This document shows positions 6,334-64,000 of a stretch of DNA of 64,000 nucleotides, in pieces. Both the position numbers and the translations under genes were made by a program. Below the pieces are notes generated by a model, which did no database searches, was not told the origin of the DNA, and saw nothing but the letters and a program-made list of their open reading frames with translations. Position 1 is the first letter of the stretch, and the number at the start of each line of letters is the position of its first letter. The stretch is taken from the NCBI GenBank assembly GCA_038061715.1, contig JBBTYP010000003.1, positions 12,034 through 76,033 of the forward strand. The letters are read 5' to 3'. The stretch comes from Patescibacteria group bacterium (GTDB lineage: Bacteria > Patescibacteriota > Minisyncoccia > Phycocordibacterales > UBA918).

Positions 6334-6339
6334 CTCGTA

Positions 6340-6367: not shown

Positions 6368-6379
6368 GTTCGTTGTCAT

Positions 6380-6853: not shown

Positions 6854-6872
6854 AGTATTTATTTATACTTTA

Positions 6873-9281: not shown

Positions 9282-9312
9282 AGCATAAACTAGAAATGCT
9301 GGTTATTTTAAG

Positions 9313-20904: not shown

Positions 20905-21993
20905 TTAAATAATACTCTTTAGGGCGAGTCCTATCGCTCCAGCATATCCATACGAGTACCTTCTACCAATTGGCGGGACGGTTTCCTCCAACGAAAAAGC
21001 ATTCTCCCAGACATTACCACGCACAGTCGGAATGTTGAGGGTTTCGCTTAGATAATCGGGTAAGCCTTTTAAATTAGCGCTCCCCCCACAAAGGACGACT
21101 GTTGTGATCCTTCTGGCTTCATCGTTGTCACTCTTCAAGTGCCAATACTGCATGCGGGTAGCGATCTCATCCTTCACCACCGATAGGGTGGAGATAAGGG
21201 CATCGCGTACCAATGAAGAATCTGTCCCTCGGACCAGGCCAATTGTATTTTTGATTTTAGTTAGTTCTGGTTCTGGCTTGTCACCGAGAGCCTTACGTAG
21301 TACTTGAGACAGTTGTTCGCCTCCAATATCTACGGTCGAAGTATAGAGCAATGCCCCTTTATGAACGATACCGATTCCAGCACGGGTCTTTCCAAAGTCA
21401 ACCAACATCGCCGCTCCCGATAAATTTTTTGGGATAACGGCTCGGGCCATAGCTTGGGCCTCGATCTCAAAGGAAACTGGTCGCAAGTCTGCTTCTAGAC
21501 ACGCTTCGTAATAAGACTGTATGGTCTGCCGCGGATACGCTACCACTGACACATCAACATTAACCGCCTCTTCCTTTGCTGGCAGTATGGAGTAATCGAA
21601 GAATACTTCCCGAGCAGGAATAGGAACGTTTTCTTCCAGTTTAAATTCCAGCAGTCCCCTAATTTCTTTATGGGGTGTGTTATTTTTGATGGTTGTCTCA
21701 AATAGATACGCTTTCTCTTCCGGTAACGACAATCGTACAAACTCGGCCTTGGTTTTTTCTTTAAATTCTTTTAAGACAGAGGCCAACTGCTTAGCATCGG
21801 TCACTTCGCCCCTTGTCACCACTCCACTGGGGATTGTGATGTCGCCCCACTGTTCTATCTGACGCGTGTCGTTATCAAAAATAGTTGGTTTGAAGGAGAG
21901 ATACTTGAGAGAGGTATCAGAAATATCAACGCCAATACAGGGCATTGTTAGATAGGTTGGTGGTGGCACAATACGAAATAAACCCGAAAGCAT
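20905..21993 (-). CDS. pilM: Type IV pilus assembly ATPase-fold protein PilM (actin-like)
   Basis: 362 aa; IGVDISDTSLKYL N-terminus and actin-like fold blocks typical of PilM. Confidence 0.75.
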   Translation of the reverse strand: MLSGLFRIVPPPTYLTMPCIGVDISDTSLKYLSFKPTIFDNDTRQIEQWGDITIPSGVVTRGEVTDAKQLASVLKEFKEKTKAEFVRLSLPEEKAYLFETTIKNNTPHKEIRGLLEFKLEENVPIPAREVFFDYSILPAKEEAVNVDVSVVAYPRQTIQSYYEACLEADLRPVSFEIEAQAMARAVIPKNLSGAAMLVDFGKTRAGIGIVHKGALLYTSTVDIGGEQLSQVLRKALGDKPEPELTKIKNTIGLVRGTDSSLVRDALISTLSVVKDEIATRMQYWHLKSDNDEARRITTVVLCGGSANLKGLPDYLSETLNIPTVRGNVWENAFSLEETVPPIGRRYSYGYAGAIGLALKSII

Positions 21994-27529: not shown

Positions 27530-27644
27530 AAGTAAGGTGCGAAAATTAATAGTGGGCTTTTTATAAGGTACTTTACTATTGTATCAGCTCAATATAGCAC
27601 CAAAACTGAGTCTGTGAGCAACAGCCGCCCCCTTACTTTAATCT

Positions 27645-28409
27645 TTACTGACTTTTCGCCTCAAAGTGGCTGATAGTACCGTCACTATGGGTAAGCGTAA
27701 GTGTGGCACCTAAGTGGGTCACGCTCAGAGTACCTACAAACTGTTGGGTAAACTCCATCTCTTGCGAACCTTCACAAAACATTTTGGTCATGGCTAGAGC
27801 ACCAATCGAAATTGTCCCATCAGTCTCGGTATAATTGCCTTTAAAGCCATTGCAGTCAGTAGCGCCGCTAATGGTGCCATCGGTAAAAGTGACCGCGAAC
27901 ACACCTGGCTGCTTGGGTGTTAGGCTATGGTCTTCTTTAATTGTTTCAATCCAAACATAGGTACCTGACAAACTACCCACTGGGGTGGTAGTGGACATTT
28001 CCAGTGTCGAGCTGGCAGCGTCACTTGGTAGATAAATTTCTTGATTCTGGCCAACAAAAAGTGTTCTTCGGCCGCGTTGTAATGTCACTTCATCGCCTTT
28101 GTTCCAAAGCGAGAGATTTTCGCTTTGGTTTTCATACTTAGCGCCAGAAGCGGCTTCAACTTGCATAAATAACAAGTTGCTGTAACCCTTACCATTTAGG
28201 AGCGCCGTGCTAGTACCGAAGGTCACAAATATAGAATCGCCAGTTTCGGTAGAAATGAACGCCACCGGAGTCGGAGAAATAGCTGGCGGAGCTGCTATTT
28301 CTTGTTCGCTTAAGTCCTGTATGTTTGGTCTGGTGATTAACCAGGCAACACAGATAGTCCCAAAGAGTAGCAGGCCTCCTAATACTGTTGCTTTTACGAA
28401 ACTGCTCAT
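27645..28409 (-). CDS. Secreted protein with MliC-like and META/HslJ-like (DUF306) domains
   Basis: 254 aa; signal anchor; GATDCNGFKGNYTETDGTISIGALAMTKMFC resembles the META-domain GCN...G...M.C pattern. Confidence 0.4.
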   Translation of the reverse strand: MSSFVKATVLGGLLLFGTICVAWLITRPNIQDLSEQEIAAPPAISPTPVAFISTETGDSIFVTFGTSTALLNGKGYSNLLFMQVEAASGAKYENQSENLSLWNKGDEVTLQRGRRTLFVGQNQEIYLPSDAASSTLEMSTTTPVGSLSGTYVWIETIKEDHSLTPKQPGVFAVTFTDGTISGATDCNGFKGNYTETDGTISIGALAMTKMFCEGSQEMEFTQQFVGTLSVTHLGATLTLTHSDGTISHFEAKSQ

Positions 28410-28554
28410 ACCTGAATAATGGCCTATTTTAAGTAATTTTCCAAGTTCAATTATGCCTATTTATTGACTTTTTGTCTAAAATATGATATCATTCAAAGTT
28501 GGGAGAATACTTATATGGCGATCAAAATGACGCCGTTCAACAATAAGGGGTACC

Positions 28555-30066
28555 TTGAAAATGAACCATATAATCAAACGTCCCCGGCTATCGCTGTGGG
28601 ACAAAGTCAAGGCTGCCACCCGTTGGTGCCTTGTCCCTCCAATCCCTGAAGAGGTGTTAGTCCGTGAAGCCGACTATCGTCGCGGCCTGGATAACTTCGG
28701 CCCAATCTACGGCCGATGGCTCGCTCTGCGAGCAGTCGTAGAAGCTGAAATCGAAGCTTTTTTGAGTGCGATCTACGTCCGCCGGCAATATCAGCCGGTG
28801 CGACACGTCTTGTTCGCACGAGAACGCAGGCTATTTGTAGTTCTCATCGGCACAGTTGTGCTGATATTTGCTGCTAATGCCAACGCGGAAAAGCGGCTGC
28901 TGCCGCAATTCTCCGTCTCGATTGATGAGTTGTCGGCTTCGGTGACTGATTTCCTAATCAAACCAGACAATTGGCTGAGTGGTCCGGCTTCCCTCACGGG
29001 CAGTCGAGCCTCCGTCCTCGGTGCGTTTCATTACGCTAAAGAGGCTCGCTATGCTTTTGCTGCCAATAATGCTGAACGCGACCGCTTGGTCGCCAACGGC
29101 ACTTTGGTAAAGCTTGAGGGTCCATACCTTGAGCTGATTGACGTGTCGAGCCCTTACGTCTTGCCGGTGGTGGCGAAATCCACCAATCGACTCGGACAGC
29201 AATACGCTGAGCAGGGTTGTGGCAAATTGAAAGTTTCAAGCGGCATGAGACCGCTCGATTTTCAAAAGACAATCAAACACGGCTCCAGCCTATCGGTTCA
29301 TCCGACTGGTATGGCGGTTGACTTGCGTCGAATCGTCCCCGAGAACAAAGAGCAAATCACTTGCCTTAACTGGCTCGCGAAAACGCTCCAAGCCATCGAG
29401 GCCGACGGTCGAGTCGACGCCACAGCCGAGACAAGACCGGAGCGACACTTTCATGTGGTCGCCGTGCCGCATGTCTACGAAGCCTGGCTGGCGACTTTAC
29501 CGCCACAACTCGATCCTGACGTGAAATGGTTGGCAACGACGCTTCATTTTGAAGCCGCACCAAACGAACTAACGGAAGGCTATCGGGCCATCGCGTGGGT
29601 AATCCGCAATCGGGTGCGTTCGAGCGAATTCCCCAACACCACCATCGAGGTGGTAGCTGAGGGAGCCGCTGGTCTTAGTACCGGTGGTTGCCAGTTCAGC
29701 TTCATGTGTGACGGTAAGCAGGAGGATATCTATGAACCCTGCAAGACGCCGAACCCGCTCATGACGCGGTATTGGTTAAATAAATGCGCTGAACGTTGGG
29801 AGGTGGTGGTCAACATCGCCAAACAAGTTCTCGCTGAACCAGAAACCAATGACCCGACTGGGGGTGCGGTATTGTATTACGCCGCATCCATGCCAAAGGC
29901 ACCCGCTTGGTCAATGCGGAGGGTTGAGACAAGGAGGCGTGAAGACGGTTCCAAGTATCAAATCGCGCTTGCTAATGGGGACTTGAAAACAGGAACCATC
30001 AAGCAAATCGGTAGCCATATTTTTGGCTGCTCGATTTTCCGTGGCAAAGACGCCTGTCGATCATAA
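28555..30066 (+). CDS. Membrane-anchored two-domain peptidoglycan hydrolase: peptidase M15 (VanY-like) plus SleB-like cell-wall hydrolase domain; GC-rich (~58%) gene
   Basis: 503 aa; SSGMRPLDFQKTIKHGSSLSVHPTGMAVDLRR (SxHxxGxAxD zinc-site pattern of M15); C-terminal YRAIAWVIRNRVRSSEFPNTTIEVV...QFSFMCDG...GGAVLYY matches SleB family blocks. Confidence 0.65.
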   Translation: MKMNHIIKRPRLSLWDKVKAATRWCLVPPIPEEVLVREADYRRGLDNFGPIYGRWLALRAVVEAEIEAFLSAIYVRRQYQPVRHVLFARERRLFVVLIGTVVLIFAANANAEKRLLPQFSVSIDELSASVTDFLIKPDNWLSGPASLTGSRASVLGAFHYAKEARYAFAANNAERDRLVANGTLVKLEGPYLELIDVSSPYVLPVVAKSTNRLGQQYAEQGCGKLKVSSGMRPLDFQKTIKHGSSLSVHPTGMAVDLRRIVPENKEQITCLNWLAKTLQAIEADGRVDATAETRPERHFHVVAVPHVYEAWLATLPPQLDPDVKWLATTLHFEAAPNELTEGYRAIAWVIRNRVRSSEFPNTTIEVVAEGAAGLSTGGCQFSFMCDGKQEDIYEPCKTPNPLMTRYWLNKCAERWEVVVNIAKQVLAEPETNDPTGGAVLYYAASMPKAPAWSMRRVETRRREDGSKYQIALANGDLKTGTIKQIGSHIFGCSIFRGKDACRS

Positions 30067-35108: not shown

Positions 35109-37655
35109 CTACGGATTACTTGGTACTGGAACCAGTCTTGGGTTCGCTAACCAAGAGAAGCTAGAATACATTCTGATCTGTTGGCCGTTTCCTAGATCAC
35201 CGCCCGAACAATTGAGCAAATTATCGATGCAATTTTTACTCCATATATCCATCACGGTATGATCCCAGGCGCCAAACCAATCGGAGTGTAAGGTAGATCC
35301 TGGCGTCATCATGGTTCCGTTGGACATTTTGTCAGAAGACAGATACCAGCTTGGCAGATTGGCATCACTGGTATACCAGGCACCCAGGGTGAAGGTTGGA
35401 ATTACGTAAGGGTGGGTTGATGGACACTGGGCATAACCCTGACCAATGTAGCTTGAGTAGGCGACGTGAGAACGGTGGTTAGCACTATCGAGGTTTTTAC
35501 CGTCCCAACATTCTGGTGCGCTCAGTACCGCACCGATCTGGCTTCCAACGGGGCAGTTAAGTCTAGCTTTGTCGAGATCCGCATAGTGTCCTGACACCGC
35601 ACCGTTACCAATACAATTGAAGTAGCCAGCTCCTGTTGGTTTGGTGCCGCTGACCATGTCGTATCCGAAGACAAAACGTAGTCCACGAGGCAGGTCTACA
35701 CAACCCATCGCTCCAATCTTGGTACAAAGGGGATCAGTCTTAGGTCGTCGTTTGTAGTAAATACTGATGTAATCAGGTTTTACTACATTACCCTTACCAT
35801 CAAGCATGGCCGGCATCCAGTAGGCTGACCGGTTGAGTGGACTCATACAGGTACTATTACCAGTTCTCCGCAAGCTGTCATAAGTTGAGTTTGCATTGGC
35901 CAGAGTATTACCAAAGAATTGATGTAGGTGTGACTTACCGGGTTGTCCAGGGTAGACAATTGGATCATCGTAAATGAGTTGTCCAGCATTACAGATAAAA
36001 CGGAAGGCTCCAACTACGTCTGGTTTTGCGCTGGCTGGGATAGCTCCCGTTCCCCAAGAGGGGACCAGTTCAGAGCTCACGGTAAAGTTACTAGCAATTG
36101 CTGCCAGCTCAACCCCAGGAGGGATTCCACTAGGAGTTGGCGTCGGAGTAGGGGTTGGGGTTGGGGTGGGTTCTGGTGTCGGGGCTGGGATTGGGGTTGG
36201 GGTAGGAGTTGGAATTGGAGTACCCGCCAACAAGGCGTCAATGACTGGCTTGTAGACACGTGAGAGTTTTACCTGACCTCCTTCACCAACTCCTTGGGTA
36301 CTGTCAGTCGGATGAACTCCATCTTGGTAGAGGGTCTTATCTGCTGCCGCCACATCTGGTCCCATCGGGGTAGTACCGCCAAAATCAATAACGGCATCAA
36401 TCTTTTTTCCAACTTGGGCTTTCAGCAAAAGATTGACCTCGGCTCTCCTTTTATTAAAATTGGTATTGTTTAGAGTATTGTTTGTCCCTGGGACAGCTTG
36501 TGGCAATACTGTTCCCACGGCCACCTTGGCCCCTCCAGTCTTAATCGGTTCGATGTATGTAAGGAGTGCGTCAACGTAGGCTTGTGCGCTGGAATAGTTA
36601 AGTAATCCGTTGGCACCGACCAAAACCGAGAATACCTTGGGTTTCGCATTAAGAACTAGTTGCCGTCTGGCAGTCATAGCATTTATATCCGAACCGCCGA
36701 CAGCCAGTCCTTTGAAGGTGATGTCAGTTCGGGAACTAGAGTAAATCCCCGTGTAATTACCTCCCCAAAAAACCGATATACTGTCACCTTCCGCTACCAC
36801 TACTGGCTTACCAGAAGTAGTCGGGGCTGGTTCTGGAGCTGGAGCTGGAGTCGGGGTAGGAGTTGGAGTTGGATCTGGGTCCGGATTAGGTAGTGGGGTC
36901 GGTGTAGGGGCTGGTTTTGAGGAGCCTCCTCCTCCGCCGCCTGTACTAGTGCTGTCATTTGTTACCGTCACCTTGGTTGACCTAACTACAGTAGTGCCTT
37001 TAGCCAGACAACTTAGAGTATAAGTGAAAGTGCCCACTCTTCGCGCCTTGATTGTTTTGCTGCCGCTTTTAGGTTGGGTTCTGGACCAACTTCCAGAAGC
37101 CTTGCAAGAACTTACATTGAAGGCATTCCAACGTAGGACGAAGTTTTTACCTTTCTGAACGGTAGCTGGTGAAGCATATATTACAATTAAGGGCTCAGCT
37201 GTAATCCCGGCCGTCAAGGCTCTCATGGAGGCACTGTACGGTACGTTATAGGCTTGATCTGGAGATTTCGCCAAGTATTGGGAGTGTTCTTGGGTTAAGA
37301 AAAAAGCTGTTTGCTCATCAATAGCTCCTGACACCCTAATATTGTTATCGGTTTGGAACTTACGGACAGCGGCTTCGGTAAGTGGGCCGAAGTACCCCGT
37401 CGGAGAAACTCTTAGATAGTCCAAGTTGTGGAGAAACAACTGCATTCGAGCCACCTCAGTCGTTTCAAAACCAAAGGAAATCGGAAGTGCTTGTATGCCT
37501 TCAGATGTATCAAGTGCAACCGGTTCGGTGTGAACCACGCCGTTGTGGGCAAACGCAACCGAACTAGTAAGGAAGGACAAAAGAACAAAAGTTACAATCC
37601 TATTACTTAGAGTCTTCATGTAAATAAGCTTTATTTTAATAGTAATTAACAGCAT
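35109..37655 (-). CDS. Large secreted multi-domain protein: peptidoglycan-binding domain, SGNH/GDSL-type hydrolase domain, PT linkers, Cys/Trp-rich C-terminal domain of unknown function
   Basis: 848 aa; signal peptide; PG_binding_1-like [27 protein letters not shown]; [15 protein letters not shown] (GDS block I of SGNH hydrolases); PTPTPT linkers. Confidence 0.5.
36133..36225. repeat. Tandem imperfect hexanucleotide repeats encoding PT linker (second tract at 36828-36950)
   Basis: ggggttggggttggggtgggttctggtgtcggggctggga... direct reading. Confidence 0.8.
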
Positions 37656-41308: not shown

Positions 41309-43045
41309 ATGGTCCAGTTCAACGATGTGTTTGGCGGTAATCGCGCGGTTGATATGCGTGCGGGAGAAGAAGAACGTTACGTGCAAGCCATGGCACCACG
41401 TTTTGGTTTCCCTTACATCTATCTCCGCGGCTACACCATTAATCCTGAAGCCCTCTTACTGGTGCCAGAACAAACCTCCAGAGCGGCCGAGGCGGTGTGT
41501 TTTGAGATACGACAGAAAGTCGTATCTCTGGCGTCCAAAAACCCAACTACCCCGGCGGTCACGACTCTAATCGAAAACTTAGTAAAACGAAAATACACCG
41601 TACAGCTTTACCTCTGTTCCACTCAGAGTCTCGAACATGTCTGGGCTCGGTACAAAGACGTTGTGGCTTCGACTACCGAGCGAAAGGGTGTTTTTGAAAT
41701 CAGCCCAGAAGACATTCTCAAACTGAAGGAGACAATAAAAGTAAAAGAAGACATTCCGGCTCTCATGGCCGCTATTAGCACCGCTAATAATATCCGCCGC
41801 ATTTCGGCCCCCCTCGAACTTATCTTTGCCGGGGCTCTCGCATTAAGAGTTTCTGATATTCATATTGAGCCTGAAGAATCTGGTATTCGCCTACGCTATC
41901 GCTTCGATGGTGTCCTACATGATATTGTCGACCTCGACTCATATATATATCAACGCCTGATGTCACGCTTGAAGCTACTCTCAGGTATGACCCTAAACGC
42001 CAAGAAGATTGCCCAAGACGGCCGCTTCACCTTTGACACCGGTGAGAAAGAAGTGGAAATCCGCTCTTCGATTATTCCTGGGGCAGTTGGCGAATCAATT
42101 GTGATGCGAATTCTCGATCCGAGTGTGGCCAGTTTTACAATGGAAAACCTTCGTCTCAATGAATACATCAAAGCTGCTATCTGCCAGCAAATAAAAAAAC
42201 CAAATGGTCTCATTGTTACTACCGGTCCAACTGGCTCAGGAAAGACGACTGCCCTCTACGCTTTCTTACGCGAAGCACACAACGAAGGGGTAAAAATCAT
42301 CACTATAGAAAACCCAGTGGAGTATAGACTCGATGGTATCGTTCAGACCCAAGTAGAAGGCGATTATACTTTTGCTACTGGACTAAGAGCGGTTCTTCGC
42401 CAAGACCCTGACATAATTATGATTGGTGAAATGCGCGACTTGGAAGTAGCCGAAACTGCTATCCACGCCGCTCAGACCGGCCACTTAGTATTTACTACCC
42501 TTCACACTAATAGTGCGGCGGCGGGCTTTTCTCGCTTAATGGACATGGGTATTGATCCGCGTTCATTTGGCACTTCGATAAATATTTTGCTGGGACAACG
42601 CCTGGTTCGCATTTTGTGTAGTGAATGTAGAGAAGCGTATACTCCAAGTGCAGATGAGGTTAAAGTAATGAAAGCTGCCCTGATTAATCATCCCCATCAA
42701 TTAGCCGTCCCCGAAGGAGCCACCATTTACCGAGCTACTGGCTGTGTGTTATGTGGTGGCACAGGCTATAAAGGTCGAGCTGGGATCTTCGAAGGTATTA
42801 TTATGGATGAGTCGGTGGAAGAAGCTGTCTTACGCGACCCTCGTGAACATGTGATTCTAGAGGCCGCCAAACCCCAGCGGATTCCTTCTATACTGGAGGA
42901 CGGGATCGAAAAAGTCATTCTTGGCATCACTTCCCTAGCTGAGCTTGCGCGTGTGGTGGAGCTACCGCCACCACACGCACTGGATAAAGTGGCTACAAAA
43001 AAACCCGAACTTTCTGAAGATGATTTCAATTCTCATATCGTGTAA
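41309..43045 (+). CDS. pilB: Type IV pilus / type II secretion assembly ATPase (PilB/GspE family)
   Basis: TGPTGSGKTT Walker A, VLRQDPDIIMIGEMRD, HLVFTTLHTN His box, C-terminal CxxC...CxxC zinc motif. Confidence 0.85.
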   Translation: MVQFNDVFGGNRAVDMRAGEEERYVQAMAPRFGFPYIYLRGYTINPEALLLVPEQTSRAAEAVCFEIRQKVVSLASKNPTTPAVTTLIENLVKRKYTVQLYLCSTQSLEHVWARYKDVVASTTERKGVFEISPEDILKLKETIKVKEDIPALMAAISTANNIRRISAPLELIFAGALALRVSDIHIEPEESGIRLRYRFDGVLHDIVDLDSYIYQRLMSRLKLLSGMTLNAKKIAQDGRFTFDTGEKEVEIRSSIIPGAVGESIVMRILDPSVASFTMENLRLNEYIKAAICQQIKKPNGLIVTTGPTGSGKTTALYAFLREAHNEGVKIITIENPVEYRLDGIVQTQVEGDYTFATGLRAVLRQDPDIIMIGEMRDLEVAETAIHAAQTGHLVFTTLHTNSAAAGFSRLMDMGIDPRSFGTSINILLGQRLVRILCSECREAYTPSADEVKVMKAALINHPHQLAVPEGATIYRATGCVLCGGTGYKGRAGIFEGIIMDESVEEAVLRDPREHVILEAAKPQRIPSILEDGIEKVILGITSLAELARVVELPPPHALDKVATKKPELSEDDFNSHIV

Positions 43046-54133: not shown

Positions 54134-55231
54134 TTATTTGAAGAATAAACAAGTATTATCCGTTCCATTCTCATCATAGAAAGTGCCACCGGCGTACCTT
54201 TCACACAGTTCTTCTTCTTGTGAAAGGCCAAGCTTGCTGAAGGTGTCGTATTTTCTACTAGGGTCTGCGGCCTTATAAGCCTCGAAGGCATCCGTAAGTT
54301 CTGAGACTGGTTTCTTTGTGTCGGGTAGTTGGCAGGTTACAGCATTGGTATTGGATCCAGTGTAATTACCGTATTTAGATGAGCACTCAGATTTTATACT
54401 ACCTAGTAAATTAGTCATACATATACTATGTTGACCTTTCTGGCTTTCAGCGGGTAAATCTTTAACATTATTATCACACGCGCCTGCTACATTTGTCGTA
54501 ATAGTTGCCCCTGATTGCCCCACATATAGAGCACCAACTGGTTGGGTGGTATTAATTATTTTTTTATTTGCTATTGAATTGGCAAGTGAGGCGGCCTCAG
54601 CGGCTCCTTCTGAAAGAAAGCCACAACCAGCAATTAGATTATTTCTTTGACCAAACTGTATGGATCCTTTGGCGGCATTACATTTTCTAACAAAGTCACC
54701 CAGCGCAGCAGACGGGTCATCACATATGGTCGCATCGAGAATCACTGTTGAGCCTCCTCCAGTTTTTGTTTCGGATCTTTTTCCGCAACCTGTCTGAAGC
54801 TCGTTAATGTTTTTTTGGACAGCCACAGCCAATATCGGTGCCTGTAAGTCCGGACGTTTCCGTAGTTCGTCAAATTTTATTTCTTTATTAATTAGTTCAG
54901 GATTAATTAGTTCTAGGATTATTACCGCACTGAGAATGAGGAGAAGGCCGAGGACGGCGCCTTGGATGTCTTTGATGGCCTCGCTCTTGTTGCTGATTAT
55001 ATCGCTCAACATGTACTTAGTTCCAGCGATGATAATTTTGATGACCGCTAAGAGGGCGGCGACGGCAATGGACATACCGTAAAGGAAGTTGATGTAGCCT
55101 TCAAATGTTTGAACGTCATTTCCCGCCCCAGCGTTACTGAGGTCAACTAGCGGCGAATACACCTTGCCTTGCGCAAAGACAAATATCGGTAGTGACAGAA
55201 AAGTGATGAGGGGGAGTAAGAGTAATTTCAT
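54134..55231 (-). CDS. Putative VirB2/TrbC-like pilin fused to a ~230-aa Cys-rich extracellular domain
   Basis: 365 aa; signal peptide plus two hydrophobic helices (FLYGMSIAVAALLAVIKIIIAGTKYML, AVLGLLLILSAVIILELI) typical of T4SS pilins; 14 Cys in C-terminal part. Confidence 0.35.
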   Translation of the reverse strand: MKLLLLPLITFLSLPIFVFAQGKVYSPLVDLSNAGAGNDVQTFEGYINFLYGMSIAVAALLAVIKIIIAGTKYMLSDIISNKSEAIKDIQGAVLGLLLILSAVIILELINPELINKEIKFDELRKRPDLQAPILAVAVQKNINELQTGCGKRSETKTGGGSTVILDATICDDPSAALGDFVRKCNAAKGSIQFGQRNNLIAGCGFLSEGAAEAASLANSIANKKIINTTQPVGALYVGQSGATITTNVAGACDNNVKDLPAESQKGQHSICMTNLLGSIKSECSSKYGNYTGSNTNAVTCQLPDTKKPVSELTDAFEAYKAADPSRKYDTFSKLGLSQEEELCERYAGGTFYDENGTDNTCLFFK

Positions 55232-55234
55232 AGG

Positions 55235-56401
55235 CTAATTATCAGGGAGAGCTACTGTAAAGTCACGGTCATACACCCACAAACTGCTATCATTGTGGTT
55301 CACAAAGTATAGTACTTGAGACTTGGTTGTAAGCAGTGTCGCGTCAAGACTTCGGCCAGCGGTTTCGCTTAACGGTTCAATTTGAGTGGTGAATTTTGTA
55401 TCAGGTTTAGTGTACCAAAGTGCGTCGCTGAAGATGGTTTCACCGCGGTACCAGCTTTCAACACTACCGCTATAAATCGAAGCTACATCAGTGGCGCAGC
55501 TGATACCACTGTCAACCACAAGGCACTTTTCTGGAATAAATAGAAAATTAACCGGCGCTGTTTCACTCGAGGCCTTATTGTAAGTGTAACTCTTGTATAC
55601 GCCATTTTCGGTTATTGAATAAATTATTGATGTATCGTTAGCGATTGCGGATAGACCAAAACCAGAGACAGGTAACCGAGCCAGCGTGTCAGATTTTATC
55701 TCATAGAGATAGCCTTCTAAGTCGGCGGCGGTTTTAGGATAGGTGTAGTGGGTTCCAGCCACTGTGTCTCCCCAGAGAACTACCGCTTCACGAAAGGGCA
55801 CAATGAAAATGTTAGTCGTATCAGTAGTTTTTAGGTTGTAGGAATAACCACGAACCGACCGACCTTCTTTCACCGCATACAAAAGGGTGTCGTCAGAAGT
55901 GAATGAAGTACTAATCGGGTTTATATTTAACACCCTTGAAGACAGAGTCGTACTACCACTTGGTAGAGTGATTACAGTTACTAACTCGCTCCCGACTGAT
56001 ATTGCAGCGTAGGCTCCATCTCTAGACAGGACAGCAGTTTCGGCTGAGGGTACGGTGATATTGGAAAGTCGCTCTTCAGTACCGTCTTCAACATTTACAC
56101 TATAGACGTGACCAGTACCGGCCTCTACAAAGCGGACCGTGCGTGGCGTACTACTACTAGCATCAAGCGCCACGTACCCAATAGTCTGTCGAAGCGATAA
56201 TTGTCTCAAGTAAGGTGAGGTAGAAGTAGCTTGATCGTCGAAGACATCACCTAAGTCAAACTGTAGTTCGTCGCCGACTAGACCAAACGTATTGTAAAGG
56301 TCTTCCTTGGCTTCATCGCCCCCAAAGAATAGATAAAGCCATAACCCGATTAGAGTAATTAATATTATTGCCGCCAGAATTAGTAGCCAAGGTTTTTTCA
56401 T
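55235..56401 (-). CDS. Membrane-anchored hypothetical protein in T4SS-like cluster
   Basis: 388 aa; N-terminal TM; beta-rich, Ser/Thr-rich. Confidence 0.3.
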   Translation of the reverse strand: MKKPWLLILAAIILITLIGLWLYLFFGGDEAKEDLYNTFGLVGDELQFDLGDVFDDQATSTSPYLRQLSLRQTIGYVALDASSSTPRTVRFVEAGTGHVYSVNVEDGTEERLSNITVPSAETAVLSRDGAYAAISVGSELVTVITLPSGSTTLSSRVLNINPISTSFTSDDTLLYAVKEGRSVRGYSYNLKTTDTTNIFIVPFREAVVLWGDTVAGTHYTYPKTAADLEGYLYEIKSDTLARLPVSGFGLSAIANDTSIIYSITENGVYKSYTYNKASSETAPVNFLFIPEKCLVVDSGISCATDVASIYSGSVESWYRGETIFSDALWYTKPDTKFTTQIEPLSETAGRSLDATLLTTKSQVLYFVNHNDSSLWVYDRDFTVALPDN

Positions 56402-57378
56402 ATAACATCAATGGTGAGCTCCCCTTTAGTGCCTTGTAGTAATTTCTGGGTACTCTGAACGCGGAAAACAACATCCACCAGTCCGGTCTGTTCGGTCCGT
56501 TCCAAAGTTATATCGTAGGGGTTGTTACCACTGGGGGCATTTATGGTAGCTATATTCCAAGCTGTTACACTGGGACTATTAAATACTTCAGAGTCGAGAT
56601 AATAAGGCTCAGCCCGCAGAGTCGTGCTGTTACTCAAAAAAACAAAAGGACTCGTAAGTGCCCGAGGGACTACGCCGTAGAGTGTACTTACTTCATAAAA
56701 TAAAAGTCTCGGAGCGGCGACAGGGAGCGCGAGGGTACGTTTGGCCACCACGGAACCATCAAGCTTGGTGACAGTGAGAGAAAGTATCGAAGAACTATCT
56801 TGAGGCATAGTGAAGGAAACACGATTACCACCACGCAGTGGGCCCCCCTGTAATACCGTGTTATTGAGACGCCAGGTATATAGGTATTCATTAGAAAGAA
56901 TGACAGCGGTACTTAAAAGTGCGGTGGCATTGACGGTACTGTCTGGAGTCGCCAGCGCGCGACCCTTATAAAAAGCCGGAACATGAGTTTGGGGTTCGAA
57001 TATAATATCGAGATAAATCGGAGTGATGATTCTAGATACGGTTTCGCTTGAGCCGCTTGGCTTGCTGAGCAGGACTTTTACCACCGCACTCTCACCAGCG
57101 TCAGGGGAGACAAGGGTTATAGAACGCTGGTTGTACGCCCAGTCCATTTTAGTGTCGTTGTAGTACCAATCGATAGTGGCACCAAAGGCCCCTCCGGCGT
57201 AGTCGTTGAGGTCAATTGTGAACGATTGGTTTGGTGAGGGGTAGCTGGGGGAGAGCTCCAGTGAGAGGTTGGTATTTAAAAAATCTTCACCGCTCGTTTG
57301 AGCACCAGAAAAGCCGGGTGTTAGTAGTAGGAGTAAGCCAAAAAGAAATAGCCGCATACTAGTATGATACCAGACCAA
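56398..57378 (-). CDS. Secreted hypothetical protein in T4SS-like cluster
   Basis: 326 aa; signal peptide MRLFLFGLLLLLTPGFSGAQ. Confidence 0.3.
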   Translation of the reverse strand: MVWYHTSMRLFLFGLLLLLTPGFSGAQTSGEDFLNTNLSLELSPSYPSPNQSFTIDLNDYAGGAFGATIDWYYNDTKMDWAYNQRSITLVSPDAGESAVVKVLLSKPSGSSETVSRIITPIYLDIIFEPQTHVPAFYKGRALATPDSTVNATALLSTAVILSNEYLYTWRLNNTVLQGGPLRGGNRVSFTMPQDSSSILSLTVTKLDGSVVAKRTLALPVAAPRLLFYEVSTLYGVVPRALTSPFVFLSNSTTLRAEPYYLDSEVFNSPSVTAWNIATINAPSGNNPYDITLERTEQTGLVDVVFRVQSTQKLLQGTKGELTIDVI

Positions 57379-57396
57379 AAGAGCTAGAATCAGCGG

Positions 57397-58236
57397 TTAT
57401 TTGGGATAGCGCCAGACCACAATCCCCCACAAGATAAACCAAGGAAGAATGTTAAGAACAGGCATTAAATAACCAAGTAAGGCAAAGATAAAAGTTCCTG
57501 ATTTAATTACAGCATGTTTGCCCATAAAACAATGCACTCCAGAGAGGATATACATAGCTGCCATAAAGCCAAGGGTAAAGATACCAATAAAGAATACAAG
57601 CATAGTGAGCCCACTAAATAGAGCATTACTAAAACCAGTCCAGCTCTCTATAACATTTAAATTTACACCAGATACAGCTTCGATAACGTTAGTGGCGGCA
57701 TCATAGATGCCATAGATGATCGCTGTGAACCTACCTTTCATAAGAGTTTCGGCGACCCCTTCCCCAGCTCCAGCGAGACCCAGTGCCACAATTGCCATTA
57801 GTGCTAGTGGTAATTGTAAGCTAAACCAAATGGGAGTAGCGAAAGATAAAACAGTAATATTTACTCGGGTGGCCGAGATGGTGCCTTTAATACTTTTGCT
57901 AAGATCTTTAACGCCACTAGCACGTAACAACTTCTTACCCTCAGTTGCAGCTCCACCCACGCTTCGCATCGCCGCGCTAGTCGCCATCATTGGAACACCC
58001 GCTACTGCTCCAGCACCAGTTCGACTCAGTACCGCGCCAGTTCTCATTACTTTACCGCCAGACCTTTTAAGGCCTCCTCCTTTGCGCAAACTTATACTTG
58101 TCACTCTAGTAGCGGCACTGCCAAATTGACGAGCGCCTTCAAGGGGAATTTGCTCGCGTTCTCCCGTCGACGGCTGTAAGCCAGCGCCTGCATATGCGCG
58201 TTCATTGAACTCTTCGTCTGTGGTCGGGTACGCCAT
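57397..58236 (-). CDS. Hypothetical polytopic membrane protein in T4SS-like cluster
   Basis: 279 aa; Gly/Ala-rich N-terminal region, 4-5 C-terminal TM helices. Confidence 0.3.
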   Translation of the reverse strand: MAYPTTDEEFNERAYAGAGLQPSTGEREQIPLEGARQFGSAATRVTSISLRKGGGLKRSGGKVMRTGAVLSRTGAGAVAGVPMMATSAAMRSVGGAATEGKKLLRASGVKDLSKSIKGTISATRVNITVLSFATPIWFSLQLPLALMAIVALGLAGAGEGVAETLMKGRFTAIIYGIYDAATNVIEAVSGVNLNVIESWTGFSNALFSGLTMLVFFIGIFTLGFMAAMYILSGVHCFMGKHAVIKSGTFIFALLGYLMPVLNILPWFILWGIVVWRYPK

Positions 58237-58250
58237 GTACCCCGATTATA

Positions 58251-60041
58251 CTATACGCGGGTGGCTTGAAGTTCGGCCCTAGCTTGGCGGATTTGGAGGA
58301 GTTGGGACGGGTCGGAAGTAATAATTTGGTCTTCAGTGTAGGAAGCGATGACCTTGATCGCAACATGTTTAAGGCCGACGAAAAATATACCCTCACCAAC
58401 ATTTGATTCAAGCAATAGGAACTTTTCCTCGTCAGTTAGATTGAAGGTCCGTTGTATATTATCAATCGCCGTTGGCGACTGCTTCATCAGAAGCTGGATG
58501 GAAGAGTTGGTTATCATTGGAACTCCGTAAGGAGAACGAAGGAAGTCGTCCACATCTTGGGTTATGGTCGCGATTCCTAAATAGTATTTACGTCCTCGCT
58601 TGGCTAGACTAAAAAGGAAAGAGGCGGTGTCTTCACTCTTCATCATCCACCAGGCTTCATCGATAACGAGTAGCCGCTTGGCCAGACGGCGCCTAACTGA
58701 ACCCCAAATAAAGTTGGTCACAATATACATGGCGACAGTTTTGAGCTCGTCTTCCATATCACGTAGCGAGAACACCACAAACTTCTGATTGATGTCGACA
58801 TTCGACGGCTTATTCATAAAACCCGACCAAGTACCACCAGTGTACTTCTGGAGACGATTGATAAGCGACTGACTACCCTCCATTCCCGCTAACACCATTT
58901 CAAAGTCAGACAAAAGTGGTGGTTCAAGATCAGCAAAGTTTGTGTCGCCAGTAATGTCTTTTAGGGCGTAAGTTTCTTGGATGGCAATGTCGATGAGTGT
59001 TTCTTCTTCAGGTGCTAGGCCACCAAGCATAAGCCTAAAGAGACCAACTAGCTCAATGATGTGGGTCCTAAGAACGTCTTTAGGGTCCTCGTCACTTTGT
59101 GGCGCAGGCAAATCAAACGGGTTAATGTGGTGACTGGAAGAAAGAGAGATATTAAAGAAACGCCCACCGGTGGCTTCAGCTAAGTATTCGTATTCACGCT
59201 CTGGGTCAATCACAATCACCTCAGTACCAAACATGAGTGAGCGTAGAATCTCCAGTTTAAGGCCATATGATTTTCCAGCCCCCGAGGTAGCGAAAGTGAC
59301 GGAGTTGTAGTTGGTAAGTGAGTAACGGTCGAAAAGGACGAGGGAGGAGTTATGACGGTTGATACCGTAGAGAATCCCAGTGTCGGAAGTGAGATCAAAA
59401 GAAGTGAAGGGGAAGAAGCTAGAAAGCGGTGAAGAATTAAACTTACTGTGTACCAAAAGCTCATCATTTCCAAGGGGAATCATGCTTTTAAAACCTTGTT
59501 CCTGTTGAAAGAGCGCCGGCTTCATGGAAATCATTCGGGAGTCAAGAATACCCCTAATATCGTTCTCAGCTTTGTTGATGTGAGCCTCGTCTTCGCCGTA
59601 AATTGCTAGATAGAACCCGACATCAAACAGTTTTTCTTCGGCTTGTTGCAGCTTGTCGCGCAGATCTTCCAGGTTCATGTACGCGGCTTCGAGCTGTGGA
59701 TCACGCACTTCGCCACGCTCTTCCTTGATGTTAATTTGGCTCTGGACTTCCGCTACTTTCTTTTGAAATTTCTTCAGAGTATCGGCTGTATCAATCGGAT
59801 GAATAAAGATAGAAACATCAATTTCGCGAGCCAGGTTTAAGACTGGTTCGAGCCAGCCGTCATTTAGGTAGCGCGGATAAGAAACAGCGTAGTATACGCG
59901 CGCATTAACACCACTGATGTTAATGCTGCGCGGTGAAATACTCACCGCCGAAGGAGCGATGACATCGGTCAAGGTCATCAACTGTTCCTTGAAGGAAATA
60001 CCGGTTGGTTTTTTTGGCTGTAGTGCGTCTAGTATTCCCAT
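58251..60041 (-). CDS. VirB4/TrbE-family T4SS ATPase, C-terminal ~600 aa (ATPase domain)
   Basis: FATSGAGKSY Walker A, LLVIDEAWWMM Walker B; start codon 1 nt after stop of upstream ORF encoding the VirB4 N-terminal domain. Confidence 0.8.
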   Translation of the reverse strand: MGILDALQPKKPTGISFKEQLMTLTDVIAPSAVSISPRSINISGVNARVYYAVSYPRYLNDGWLEPVLNLAREIDVSIFIHPIDTADTLKKFQKKVAEVQSQINIKEERGEVRDPQLEAAYMNLEDLRDKLQQAEEKLFDVGFYLAIYGEDEAHINKAENDIRGILDSRMISMKPALFQQEQGFKSMIPLGNDELLVHSKFNSSPLSSFFPFTSFDLTSDTGILYGINRHNSSLVLFDRYSLTNYNSVTFATSGAGKSYGLKLEILRSLMFGTEVIVIDPEREYEYLAEATGGRFFNISLSSSHHINPFDLPAPQSDEDPKDVLRTHIIELVGLFRLMLGGLAPEEETLIDIAIQETYALKDITGDTNFADLEPPLLSDFEMVLAGMEGSQSLINRLQKYTGGTWSGFMNKPSNVDINQKFVVFSLRDMEDELKTVAMYIVTNFIWGSVRRRLAKRLLVIDEAWWMMKSEDTASFLFSLAKRGRKYYLGIATITQDVDDFLRSPYGVPMITNSSIQLLMKQSPTAIDNIQRTFNLTDEEKFLLLESNVGEGIFFVGLKHVAIKVIASYTEDQIITSDPSQLLQIRQARAELQATRV

Positions 60042-60042
60042 A

Positions 60043-60684
60043 TTAATTTGTTTCTTCGGTTAAGGGAGCAAAGCCAGTCGGGTCGTTTGGATTATAGGTA
60101 TGGTAGAAAAGTTCGACCAATTCATCCTTCCCGAGCGTGACCGTCTTGACCCCGATTCGAGCCAGACCTTCTGTCACTAAGGAGACCCGTTGTTCGAGCT
60201 GAGTCCGCTCTTCTTCAAAGATACCGTCACTAATAGTGGCTGCACCACTCTTGGCCCGAAAAAGGCCACTAAGACCACGGGTAATATTGACCTTGGTTGG
60301 ACTGTACGACACAATCACGAAGAAATTCTTGCTCATAACATCAACCTGAGCGGTAAAGGTACGAATGAACTCCACATATTCCCTAAGTTGTATTCGCATT
60401 AGATCATTATCCTGCTTGTCTTCAAGAGTGCCAAGCACAGCTAAGTAGGGTTCGATATTTAGTCGCCGCGAACGTAGTTGGATTTGAATCGAAAAATCCA
60501 GCGTATTAAGGAATTGTTGAAATTGCTGCAAAATAGCGCGCTGCTCATCATATGATTTAAGTGCGAAGTTGATAGACGAAGCCAAGACCACCATTGTCAT
60601 CTGGCCACTTTTTTGAATCACCACATTATCTCTAATGTCGCGTACGGCTACAAAGTTTTGACTGGCGGCGTGGTTTGGTGTCAT
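60043..60684 (-). CDS. VirB4-family N-terminal domain as a separate 213-aa ORF (split virB4)
   Basis: VAVRDIRDNVVIQKSGQMTMVVLASSINFALKSYDEQRAILQQFQQFLNTLDFSIQIQLRS matches N-terminal region of Gram-positive-type VirB4 (PrgJ/TraE-like); 213+596 aa equals typical VirB4 length. Confidence 0.55.
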   Translation of the reverse strand: MTPNHAASQNFVAVRDIRDNVVIQKSGQMTMVVLASSINFALKSYDEQRAILQQFQQFLNTLDFSIQIQLRSRRLNIEPYLAVLGTLEDKQDNDLMRIQLREYVEFIRTFTAQVDVMSKNFFVIVSYSPTKVNITRGLSGLFRAKSGAATISDGIFEEERTQLEQRVSLVTEGLARIGVKTVTLGKDELVELFYHTYNPNDPTGFAPLTEETN

Positions 60685-61094
60685 GATTTTTTCTCGATAG
60701 CTTGTAACTCTAGTCGGCGCGCAAGAGATGATAAGTCACCGTTCCTCTTTGTGCGAATGTGTGGTTCAAATAATTCAGGAGTGTTGAGTTTATCCTCGGG
60801 GATTTTGTAAAGCATTTCTTCTTTGCGCCATAAATAGAGACGTTTGCCAGAGAAATAGTTAACAATTGCTTCCAAAAAGTATGAGAAAGGCCGGCTGTTG
60901 ACTGGGTAAAAGGCCAAAGCACCTGCGAATACTGCTAGCGGTATACCAAAAGCGACAAACAAAAGAAACGGTAAGCGCAAGAAAAGTACCACTGCCATAC
61001 CAATACCACCACCGAGGTACAAAAATTGTCTCCAGGTTAAAGGGCCGAAAATTTTGTCTTCGATTTCGATAAATTGAGGCACCTCAAACCGCAT
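60681..61094 (-). CDS. PrgI/VirB3-like small two-TM T4SS protein
   Basis: 137 aa; MRFEVPQFIEIEDKIFGPLTWRQFLYLGGGIGMAVVLF... pattern of PrgI family; overlaps virB4-N by 4 nt. Confidence 0.45.
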   Translation of the reverse strand: MRFEVPQFIEIEDKIFGPLTWRQFLYLGGGIGMAVVLFLRLPFLLFVAFGIPLAVFAGALAFYPVNSRPFSYFLEAIVNYFSGKRLYLWRKEEMLYKIPEDKLNTPELFEPHIRTKRNGDLSSLARRLELQAIEKKS

Positions 61095-61145
61095 ACTCTA
61101 CCATTATACACAAAGAAAATGGCCGCTTTCGCGGCACATCCCCTA

Positions 61146-62009
61146 CTATTTTGTTTCGCTGTCCCATTGCGGAGATGGAGGCGCCGCACTTACCGCCTCC
61201 GCATGTACTATCAAGTCTTCTTTCTGCAAAATGTCAGCCTGACTACTAGCTTGATAAACCACATCCGACCCAGGTTTAATCGCCGCCATATCATGCGACA
61301 TGGTACGTACAGTTTGCAACGAAGCCAGTTCATTTTCCGCTGTTGAAATTTCTGAAAAGATATTTTGAGCAGTAAAGGCAGGTAGAACCGCCGCCTGACT
61401 ATCAGGGTAGATAAATTCATATAAGTGACTTTCTATGTCATTTTGTTCATACGGACCAGAAATTTTTAGGTTGTGATATAGGAATGGAATAAAATCTGTT
61501 GGTTTGTATATACCTAAATTAATATCACCGCAGAACTCAGCAATTGTTATACAAGATATTTCTTCAAGTCCCAGTCCCCGGGCCTTTCTTACAGCACCTA
61601 CTTTAAGCTCAATGTAATTTATAAGCTCATCTTTGGTCAACGATTCTAAAACGGTGTTTCTTTGCATGGCCTCAATTGAATGGCTCATTTCCTTGTAGGC
61701 TGTTCCAATGGAGGTCCTTATGTCAGTAGGGGTTGATTCAAGTATACTCAAAACACAAGTTACTGCTGCGTAGGCAGGCACGGAGCATTCGGTGGCTATA
61801 AACTCCATTAGCTCAAATTCATTTATGAAAAGAAACAAATACATTGTGTATCCGTTTGCAAAGACACCTTTCTGGTCTTCGTCAAGTAATAACAAGTCAG
61901 CATAAATAGCTATTGTCGTAGATGGCATGTCACCTAACACAAAGTCCTGGTAGTCTGGTGTCAGCGTTAGTAGTCGTTCTTTAATTAGTGTGTCGCTTAT
62001 ATCAGGCAT
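61146..62009 (-). CDS. Hypothetical cytoplasmic protein in T4SS-like cluster
   Basis: 287 aa, no motifs recognised. Confidence 0.3.
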   Translation of the reverse strand: MPDISDTLIKERLLTLTPDYQDFVLGDMPSTTIAIYADLLLLDEDQKGVFANGYTMYLFLFINEFELMEFIATECSVPAYAAVTCVLSILESTPTDIRTSIGTAYKEMSHSIEAMQRNTVLESLTKDELINYIELKVGAVRKARGLGLEEISCITIAEFCGDINLGIYKPTDFIPFLYHNLKISGPYEQNDIESHLYEFIYPDSQAAVLPAFTAQNIFSEISTAENELASLQTVRTMSHDMAAIKPGSDVVYQASSQADILQKEDLIVHAEAVSAAPPSPQWDSETK

Positions 62010-62011
62010 AG

Positions 62012-63961
62012 CTATTCTTCTTTTTTCTTATCGTCGTCTTTCTTGTCATCGAGCTCTTTAAGCAATGCAGCTTGCTCCTTCATGGCGTCTTGTTCTTTTT
62101 TGGATTTTTTCTTTTTACTGCCATCAAAACCATACTTTTTCCGTAACTCTTTTACTACATTCTTATCTTTGTACCATTCACCACCCAAAGCACCAGCTAC
62201 TAGGACACCTCCCACGGCACCTGTTGTTCCGCCGATTGCCGCCGTGCCGATAATTCCCGTTGAAGCACCACCACCACCAGCCTCTGAACCTCTCAACCAT
62301 TTATTCTTCGTCTCCTTTTCTCTGCGATCCAAGTAAGAAAGCTGGTGTTTGTACTGAGCTTTCGTCGCATTTTTCTCTAGCAAATCCTCGGCTTCTTTTT
62401 TAGCTGCTGCATGAGCAGCTGCAAGTCTGTCAGTTTCTTCCTTCAGAGAATCTTCAATTGCCTTCATGGCCAGCTGTTGCTCTACAATTTTCTTAGCCAG
62501 AATTTGTCGCTTAGCGGCATCTGTTTCGCCTACAAGTTTAGTATTGAGTTTCTTAATTTCATCACGATAAGGTCTTCTGGCCGTGCTCAACCTTGTGTTA
62601 TGAGCATCGAGATTCGTTGCAGCTATATTCTGAGCGTCTTTCAGGTCTGTATACTCCTTCGTTCCCATCACCTCAGCTTTTGCTTCGTCTTCATTCTTTG
62701 TTCCTAGCGAGTCCATGAACTTCTCCTCGTCTTTCACCGCTGCTTTTTGCCTAGTTACAAACCCCCCCTTGCTACTTTCGCCAAGACCAAGTCCTTTGCC
62801 CACTCCTCCCACGTTTCGGACATCCCAGGTCGAGTCGGCCGCTTTTCCTGCGGCTTTGTACGCAAGTTTACCGAATCGGCTATTTACTGCCCTAGTCTTT
62901 CCAAATTCGGACTCAGTGTAACGATTCGCTAGTGCTCCGGCTGTGTTCCTTCCAATTCTCGCTCCGACTCCTAGAGTTCCACCACCTACTGCACCGCGGA
63001 CTTTTCTTTCAAACGACTTACCCAGACTCATCGCTTTTTTGCCGCCGTCAGCACCGAGTTTGTCAGCGGCCCAGACAGAGAGGCCAAGGAAAATACAGAC
63101 TAAGATAAAGAAAGGAAATGTTCCTAGTTGTCCGGCGGCTTTGCCGCCTACTACTGTCTGAGCTCCCTGGAAAGTTCCTGCCCAGTCAGGGTTGGCAAAA
63201 CCATTACCCTTTTCTCCCACACTTACTTGTAGTCCAGAAATAATTTGAAGTGAGAAATAAATAAAGAGTAAATAAATTGGCGCCACTAAGGCTCGACCTA
63301 TAAACATTGACCAAAATCTTTCGAAAGTGTCTTTGATTGCAGGAATAATCCAACTCAGAAACATAATTGGTGATAGCACCATAAAGAGGTTTAGGACAGC
63401 AAAGCGCATTATCAACATGATTCCGCCAGCTGCGAACACAAACATGGCAGTAAGCATAAGCATAGCGGTGCCAAAGATATAACCCCAACCTTTGCCGTCA
63501 ACCTGTCCGACAGTCAGTCCAAAAGAATTGTTTATTCCCAAGCGAGCCATGAACTCTGTGGCCAGATCAATTTGCTGCAGACCGTCTTTGGTAGTACAGC
63601 CCTCACAAGTTGATCCTAAGCCATTAATAGCGATTTGGGCGGCAAGCTGGTTACTCATGTCGATAGCAAACTTTACAACAAAAAGACTGAAATTGACCAA
63701 TAAGGCAGCTAAAATTATATTAACAAGCCAACGACGAGTATTAGAATCGGAGGAATTTAATATCATCTTGAAACCGATATAGACGAAACCGAAGATAAAG
63801 CCAAGGTTTACAAAATCACGGACAATAATCCAAGTGTTATCAACTGCCACTCCAATACCAGTGTTAACAAAAGCATCGCCAAAACCAAGTACAAAGCTGT
63901 TCACAGCAAAGCTAAGGAGCGAAGCAGCCAAGGCCACAAACAATCCAAGTATTCCCATCAC
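62012..63961 (-). CDS. VirB6/TrbL-like polytopic membrane protein with charged/coiled-coil C-terminal tail
   Basis: 649 aa; >=6 TM helices in N-terminal 320 aa, Gly-rich linker, Lys/Glu-rich C-terminus. Confidence 0.45.
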   Translation of the reverse strand: MMGILGLFVALAASLLSFAVNSFVLGFGDAFVNTGIGVAVDNTWIIVRDFVNLGFIFGFVYIGFKMILNSSDSNTRRWLVNIILAALLVNFSLFVVKFAIDMSNQLAAQIAINGLGSTCEGCTTKDGLQQIDLATEFMARLGINNSFGLTVGQVDGKGWGYIFGTAMLMLTAMFVFAAGGIMLIMRFAVLNLFMVLSPIMFLSWIIPAIKDTFERFWSMFIGRALVAPIYLLFIYFSLQIISGLQVSVGEKGNGFANPDWAGTFQGAQTVVGGKAAGQLGTFPFFILVCIFLGLSVWAADKLGADGGKKAMSLGKSFERKVRGAVGGGTLGVGARIGRNTAGALANRYTESEFGKTRAVNSRFGKLAYKAAGKAADSTWDVRNVGGVGKGLGLGESSKGGFVTRQKAAVKDEEKFMDSLGTKNEDEAKAEVMGTKEYTDLKDAQNIAATNLDAHNTRLSTARRPYRDEIKKLNTKLVGETDAAKRQILAKKIVEQQLAMKAIEDSLKEETDRLAAAHAAAKKEAEDLLEKNATKAQYKHQLSYLDRREKETKNKWLRGSEAGGGGASTGIIGTAAIGGTTGAVGGVLVAGALGGEWYKDKNVVKELRKKYGFDGSKKKKSKKEQDAMKEQAALLKELDDKKDDDKKKEE

Positions 63962-64000
63962 AATAGAGTAGACAACTTCTTGAGCGGCGCAATTTATCGT

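Follow-up and report, generated by a model that had tools for sequence, protein, structure and literature searches.

The Patescibacteria form a very large group that is for the most part uncultivated, and their type IV secretion systems (T4SSs) are among the few molecular leads to their life on other cells. Two published studies describe the systems closest to the locus reported here, a cluster of same-strand genes next to yidC in a 64,000-nucleotide (nt) stretch of contig JBBTYP010000003.1 (the whole stretch is called the window below) from an ultrasmall member of the Paceibacteria/Parcubacteria. Wang et al. 2023 showed that a Saccharibacteria T4SS cluster including pilins is essential for epibiotic growth, and that this system resembles Gram-positive conjugative systems and has no recognisable relaxase or coupling protein (PMC10633639); the T4SS is essential in the sole genetically tractable species. 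Quinonero-Coronel et al. 2025 found VirB4 in 2,417 of 3,035 Patescibacteria genomes, where it forms its own clade inside MPF_FATA, with TrsD as the commonest VirB4 partner, PrgI/VirB3, VirB6 and VirB2-like pilins encoded nearby, and relaxases rare; in Paceibacteria and Microgenomatia the clusters lie near dnaA, dnaN, rnpA, ksgA and rpmH (PMC12102498). The system type, the origin-proximal position, the lack of a relaxase and the pilins are already published in these two studies. The locus described here is a clean Paceibacteria example with a complete conserved gene set. We propose that it is most probably a Patescibacteria-type core-genome T4SS, derived from monoderm MPF_FATA conjugation machinery and used for host-cell contact, not conjugation.

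Gene content of the T4SS locus

The DNA was derived from a 0.2-µm-filtered Hainich groundwater metagenome, and the encoded proteins are listed at NCBI as AAB618_005xx. A preliminary description of the window, made from the sequence letters, had placed nine minus-strand T4SS-like genes beside yidC, and all nine open reading frames (ORFs), co-directional and tightly packed, were recovered at the same coordinates within 54134-64000 (Table 1), although that description named ten items for the nine genes. Its boundary at 63961 has to be moved: on the full 75-kb contig the cluster consists of 11 same-strand genes (~12.5 kb, intergenic spacing -4 to 51 nt), nine of them in the window. The complete VirB6-like gene encodes 697 amino acids (aa) and starts ~105 nt past the window end (~64105), and two extra genes of 553 and 294 aa lie 5' of it on the same strand. 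The 11-gene array is flanked by ksgA on one side, with pcrA/uvrD, a LysM-M23 peptidase gene (opposite strand) and a comM-like gene also upstream beyond the 294- and 553-aa genes; at the opposite end the pilin gene adjoins yidC, followed by rnpA, rpmH, dnaA and dnaN. For comparison, a VirB4 scan of one genome per GTDB species yielded at least 549 relatives, of which the best 80 were used, and the cluster and flank proteins were compared by tblastn with 81 loci, many of them truncated.

Table 1. Features of the T4SS locus, in order of position, with the basis of each assignment and the number of loci in which the gene was found
Feature	Position	Strand	Basis	Loci with gene (of 81)
VirB2-type pilin with Cys-rich C-terminal domain	54134..55231	-	weak own profile matches, orthologues and topology	57
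Predicted membrane-anchored seven-bladed beta-propeller protein, 388 aa, invariant Cys pair	55235..56401	-		62
Secreted protein with at least one immunoglobulin-like (Ig-like) domain, 319 aa	56398..57357	-	signal peptide and family profile match	71
Small polytopic membrane protein, 279 aa, 3-4 transmembrane (TM) segments	57397..58236	-	TM scan	
VirB4 ATPase	58251..60041	-	NF045971 and P-loop_TraG	
TrsD-like protein (VirB4 N-terminal domain as separate polypeptide)	60043..60684	-	VirB4-model and TrsD alignments	80
PrgI/VirB3-like membrane protein	60681..61094	-	PF12666	78
GC-rich hairpin GCCGCGAAAGCGGC followed by a T-run	61122..61135	-	sole sizeable intergenic gap (51 nt)	
Soluble cytoplasmic protein, 287 aa	61146..62009	-	no TM segment; cluster-specific family	
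Extended VirB6/TrbL-like polytopic protein, cut by window end	62012..64000	-	orthologues and precomputed annotation	62
Anchored protein, 553 aa, outside the window				52
Anchored protein, 294 aa, outside the window				38

The product of the virB4 gene corresponds to the C-terminal two-thirds of a full-length VirB4 and matches NCBIfam NF045971 ("VirB4-like conjugal transfer ATPase, CD1110 family") with 354.9 bits (E = 8.9e-106; curated cut-off 325) as well as Pfam P-loop_TraG (3e-27), and its Walker A (ATSGAGKS, residue 251) and Walker B (LLVIDE, residue 457) motifs are both intact. When the curated models were ranked by profile score the best was that of a VirB4 from Firmicutes integrated conjugative elements (ICEs); a weak match to CedB (7.7e-9) merely reflects the shared ATPase. 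The protein encoded just upstream aligns with positions 102-238 of the Mbov_0397 VirB4 model and positions 2-120 of the CD1110 model, its matches to VirB4 N-terminal models and TrsD have E-values of 4e-9, 2e-5 and 1e-3 (the last being TrsD), and its precomputed annotation is PF26593 TraC-like; the TrsD family profile found no match among PDB sequences. The preliminary description had called VirB4 split, which holds in that there are two genes, but not in the sense of a disruption. TrsD is kept as a separate gene of ~210 aa, with 30 invariant columns, in 80 of the 81 loci and both parts are highly conserved, so that a frameshifted pseudogene was rejected; the pair is the normal, conserved TrsD+VirB4 two-gene arrangement. 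The stop codon of the PrgI/VirB3-like gene overlaps the TrsD start by 4 nt, and its product matches PrgI PF12666 at 1.2e-9 (39 bits, gathering cut-off 27).

The assignments of the remaining two core components, the VirB6-like protein and the pilin, come through orthologues. The VirB6-like protein has a signal peptide, at least six TM helices and a long charged C-terminal region. Its window portion gave no match in current Pfam, while 12 of 55 positional orthologues match TrbL/VirB6 PF04610 (best 2e-8) and the family profile aligns weakly with R388 TrwI (E=0.15) across the TM region. The precomputed annotation of the 697-aa protein is PF19590 TrbL_3, yet current Pfam gives no such match even at E<=1; the model has perhaps been changed or withdrawn. 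The pilin carries a signal peptide (residues 1-21), a TM hairpin (~50-68 and 91-109) and a C-terminal domain of 250 aa holding 10 Cys (residues 149-361), which agrees with its earlier description as a pilin-like protein fused to a Cys-rich domain. The window copy matches T4SS_pilin PF18895 weakly (3e-3, 18 bits against a gathering cut-off of 26.6) and Mbov_0395 pilin at 6e-4, whereas 50 of 55 positional orthologues match PF18895 (best 4e-9) and 7 of the 55 match TrbC/VirB2. The VirB2-, VirB3-, VirB4- and VirB6-like assignments proposed at the outset are in this way supported by profile searches, either directly (VirB4, PrgI) or by way of orthologues (pilin, VirB6). No cluster protein matches the VirB7/VirB9/VirB10, VirB8 or VirB11 families, and the pilin family profile has no match in the PDB. 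With VirB4, TrsD, PrgI/VirB3, VirB6 and a VirB2-like pilin all present near dnaA and no relaxase nearby, the locus would be classed as a Patescibacteria T4SS; it fits neither a conjugative element (ICE or plasmid) nor a diderm MPF_T system.

The stop codons of yidC (+) and the pilin gene (-) are convergent and meet at 54133/54134 with a spacer of 0 nt, which leaves no room for separate terminators. The hairpin in the gap upstream of the PrgI/VirB3-like gene might be an internal terminator or attenuator; in the promoter and terminator scan as a whole the number of sites was no higher than in shuffled controls.

Chromosomal site and inheritance

Among the best 80 of the at least 549 VirB4 relatives, which are 67-88% identical to the window VirB4, all are labelled Patescibacteria or unclassified ("bacterium", "uncultured bacterium") and none carries the name of another phylum; the Paceibacteria/Parcubacteria lineages include Kaiser-, Nomura-, Taylor-, Adler-, Campbell- and Zambryskiibacteria, plus "Saccharibacteria" placeholder names. 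In these 80 relatives the array has the order ksgA | 294-553-VirB6-287-PrgI-TrsD-VirB4-279-319-388/pilin | yidC-rnpA-dnaA at the same site. This origin-proximal position near dnaA, dnaN, rnpA, rpmH and ksgA is typical of Paceibacteria and is kept in related loci. The order of the pilin and propeller genes is swapped in many more distant relatives (loci L018-L083), and the 279-aa gene after virB4 is missing from about one third of the more distant relatives. VirB4 identity correlates with that of the chromosomal proteins DnaA (r=0.97), PcrA (0.98) and YidC (0.90), and the mean conservation of VirB4 (74%) exceeds that of DnaA (66%). The GC content of the locus (0.43-0.47) is in line with the whole window and shows no compositional anomaly.

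These data bear directly on the reading of the locus as an intact or remnant integrated conjugative element that transfers DNA from cell to cell. VirB4, PrgI, TrsD and VirB6 are all of Gram-positive conjugation descent, and a PcrA/UvrD helicase and a LysM-M23 peptidase are encoded a few kb upstream, although these two are themselves syntenic housekeeping genes. No relaxase, type IV coupling protein (T4CP) or integrase was found among the 20 non-cluster window proteins of at least 250 aa, which agrees with the earlier remark that relaxase and coupling protein are missing from the window, nor in the 10 kb past the window end, where a search for VirD4- or VirB1-like genes had been suggested; within the 74 kb there is also no flanking tRNA or repeat. 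The absence of relaxase, T4CP and integrase in 74 kb, together with the identical ksgA - yidC/dnaA site in dozens of species and the co-divergence of VirB4 with DnaA, argues against a mobile element or ordinary ICE, and the composition is unremarkable. We rejected the ICE reading on these grounds and consider it extremely improbable, in agreement with the view of the preliminary description, now backed by the fixed chromosomal site across species, that this is probably not a conventional conjugative element. The locus is a core-genome feature under strong constraint and passed on vertically.

Variable pilin module and accessory proteins

The pilin cores of the 55 orthologues form one BLAST cluster, and 47 of them carry extensions of at least 50 aa (median 164) that fall into 41 mutually unrelated clusters; the extensions are mostly Cys-rich and their Cys counts are nearly always even. 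The Cys-rich domain of the window pilin has just two relatives among 5.8 billion proteins, in which all 10 Cys are invariant. One orthologue (L044:13293-15032) bears a subtilase Peptidase_S8 domain N-terminal to the pilin core (5.6e-18) and another (L045:14984-16282) a long N-terminal insert and a weak C-terminal CHAP match (3.5e-3), from which we deduce that either outward-facing end of the pilin can carry cargo. A search for further pilin genes in the window found none besides the one in Table 1. Structure prediction had been suggested for the pilin fusion and the accessory proteins; it gave a propeller fold for one of the latter, but the AlphaFold2 model of the pilin fusion, built on an alignment of three sequences, was unusable (predicted local distance difference test, pLDDT, of 53).

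The accessory proteins had been called uncharacterised, which stands for the 279- and 287-aa proteins and falls for the 319- and 388-aa proteins, whose folds were recognised. The longest ORF of the former of these two spans 56398-57378; an ATG at 57357 gives 319 aa with a signal peptide and is most likely the start of the gene. The family profile of the 319-aa protein matches Ig-like domains of T4 Hoc (1.7e-6), its other matches being near chance (a Gram-positive surface protein at 0.012 and phage decoration proteins at 0.16-0.5). The 388-aa protein is membrane-anchored; its structural model is a seven-bladed beta-propeller, and fold searches with this model returned generic seven-bladed propellers alone and no T4SS component.

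The 279-, 287-, 294- and 553-aa proteins belong to no recognisable family. The 279-aa protein is disordered in its N-terminal region, has a conserved P...LP(W) motif and matches nothing in Pfam or NCBIfam; iterative searches with hidden Markov models join 40 of 51 positional counterparts into one family. The 287-aa protein consists of an N-terminal helical domain, which drifts, a linker and a very conserved C-terminal region of ~60 aa (...LQTVRTMSHDMAAIKPGSDVVYQSSQADIL...RWD), near-invariant in close relatives, and distant orthologues end in DPYRE instead. One family comprises 62 of its 74 positional counterparts and has 489 representatives among 1.84 billion proteins, typically of ~170 aa, and the window copy is longer than these by an internal segment of ~110 aa. 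No Pfam or PDB relative was detected for this family, and a search for the conserved C-terminal peptide in the other window proteins found none. The 553- and 294-aa proteins each have an N-terminal TM helix and are anchored and extracytoplasmic, and their family profiles found no match among PDB sequences. In the 553-, 294- and 287-aa families the conserved core has no Pfam match and accessory modules are occasional only, such as Ig-like or discoidin modules in some 553-aa orthologues and TSP3 Ca-binding repeats in some 294-aa orthologues.

We propose the following working for these parts. PrgI/VirB3 and the free-standing TrsD would dock a VirB4 ATPase hexamer at the membrane, where the VirB6-like protein and the small polytopic 279-aa protein could form a membrane channel or a pilin-extraction platform, and VirB4 would pull the VirB2-type pilin from the membrane to build a filament or stub on the surface. 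As both ends of the pilin would face outward, the disulfide-rich variable module would be displayed on the surface. The Ig-like, propeller, 294-aa and 553-aa proteins, which are lineage-specific, may stand in for the missing VirB7/9/10 and for adhesins; these four extracytoplasmic proteins would span the wall and contact the host. The 287-aa cytoplasmic protein might use its invariant peptide to bind the ATPase, or might itself be a substrate. The function of the whole would be contact-dependent exchange with, or attachment to, a host cell, as the preliminary description had also supposed and in agreement with the published view of Patescibacteria (PMC10633639, PMC12102498).

A simpler device has to be weighed against this, in which VirB4, VirB3 and VirB6 insert and extrude a pilin that anchors a variable adhesin and nothing is translocated. 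It would account for the lack of a coupling protein and of a recognisable substrate, for the hypervariable outward-facing pilin modules (the 47 extended orthologues with their 41 clusters, one with a subtilase and one with a weak CHAP match) and for the binding-type folds in other accessory proteins. We regard it as unlikely, since the ATPase and a cytoplasmic partner with an invariant C-terminal peptide are conserved beyond what would be expected for display alone, and in Saccharibacteria adhesion is already given by the type IV pilus (PMC10633639). A fuller version of the T4SS reading can be offered as a tentative possibility, which we doubt more than we believe: in Paceibacteria the single VirB2-type pilin might be a carrier showing a rapidly replaced disulfide-rich or enzymatic module on the T4SS filament, setting host specificity or breaching the host wall; the conserved Ig-like, seven-bladed-propeller and anchored proteins might be an undescribed wall-spanning part of a monoderm T4SS; and the 287-aa cytoplasmic protein might serve VirB4/TrsD specifically, as a partner or a substrate. 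Surface proteins with binding folds make up most of the components, and from one species to another the pilin module is exchanged while the motor keeps 67-88% identity; should the module follow host range, it could allow hosts to be predicted from metagenomic data.

Weight of the proposal and comparison with known systems

Several points weigh against a T4SS for host-cell contact. The array has no recognisable VirB1-like or VirB8-like component, and the identities of VirB6 and the pilin rest on orthologues because the window proteins themselves fall below Pfam thresholds. Essentiality of the T4SS has been shown in Saccharimonadia (S. epibionticum) only, a class other than Paceibacteria (PMC10633639). 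Most genomes of Patescibacteria are reported to have VirD4-like genes, as a rule at a great distance from virB4 (PMC12102498), and a T4CP or an unrecognised relaxase could be encoded elsewhere in the present genome. No substrate or effector for the T4SS was identified, and a pilin with a 250-aa appendage might be unable to polymerise.

The array could also be thought of as a machine for DNA uptake or release, like H. pylori ComB or archaeal Ced, that imports host DNA or nucleotides instead of exchanging proteins or signals. Relaxase-independent, DNA-importing relatives of T4SSs exist, these organisms are without nucleotide synthesis, the T4SS co-localises with comF, recG and radA in class ABY1 (PMC12102498), and a comM-like gene lies ~9 kb upstream. 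Such a function is nevertheless quite improbable: the array encodes no recognisable DNA-binding or DNA-processing protein, the type IV pilus genes in the window already give the usual uptake route, and, in the passages of PMC10633639 conveyed by PMC12857230, deletion of comEC in S. epibionticum ended competence but not viability, with the T4SS still essential. A host-contact T4SS remains the reading that we favour.

Other features of the window may be recorded here. Type IV pilus genes are present, i.e., PilM at 20905-21993 (-, 5e-30) and a PilB/T2SSE ATPase at 41309-43045 (+, 9e-107), so that the organism has both a type IV pilus and a T4SS. The stretches 24881-30066 and 35109-37655 encode several large enzymes of the cell wall or of glycans that are probably secreted, among them an 882-aa protein with Golvesin_C and a GH30 C-domain, a Hydrolase_2 cell-wall hydrolase (503 aa), a PG_binding_1+GDSL+DUF1996 protein (848 aa) and a MliC-type lysozyme inhibitor fused to META (254 aa); they are compatible with a lifestyle of attacking host surfaces. 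A low-GC stretch at 6001-10000 (0.39-0.40 vs ~0.46) holds an 802-aa ORF at 6873-9281 (-) with no Pfam match at E<=1e-3, situated between tRNA-His (6262-6334) and a ParB_N-domain protein (10507-11649); this could represent an acquired island or else an orphan surface protein.

Compared with the MPF_FATA systems (TrsC-TrsD-TrsE of pGO1/pIP501, PrgH-PrgI-PrgJ of pCF10 and the C. difficile CD1110-type ICEs), the locus shares the order VirB3-like, TrsD, VirB4, a VirB6-like polytopic protein and the absence of VirB7/9/10. It differs in having no relaxase, T4CP, recognisable VirB1-like hydrolase, recognisable VirB8-like protein or PrgB-type adhesin, in not being mobile, and in possessing a VirB2-type pilin, which is absent from the Gram-positive MPF_FATA systems. 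The T4CP-less translocators Bordetella Ptl and Brucella VirB likewise have no relaxase or nearby coupling protein and serve host interaction, not conjugation, but they belong to the diderm MPF_T systems, possess VirB7-11 and have known substrates. The VirB6-like protein resembles extended VirB6 proteins (e.g., of Rickettsiales; PMC12857230) in its polytopic core and the long hydrophilic C-terminal region behind it, but outside the core the sequences are unrelated, and it is a single copy here as against paralogue families there.

The closest likeness is to the Patescibacteria-clade T4SS, including SEML1_0006-0019 of S. epibionticum, with which the locus shares a Firmicutes-type VirB4, a separate TrsD, PrgI/VirB3, VirB6, a VirB2-like pilin by virB4, no nearby relaxase or T4CP, the chromosomal site at dnaA/dnaN/rnpA/rpmH/ksgA and a monoderm organism. 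It differs from the published Patescibacteria systems in having no peptidase or lysozyme genes directly 3' of virB4 and in six accessory families (Ig-like, propeller, polytopic, cytoplasmic and two anchored) that we did not find described for Patescibacteria T4SSs. As far as we found, neither the accessory set nor the variable pilin appendage is described in the main texts of PMC10633639 and PMC12102498, and a modest novelty may lie in the conserved accessory set common to Paceibacteria and in the hypervariable terminal module on a single pilin. Where Saccharimonadia and Microgenomatia have arrays of 2-11 pilin genes, the locus here has one pilin gene with a large variable module.

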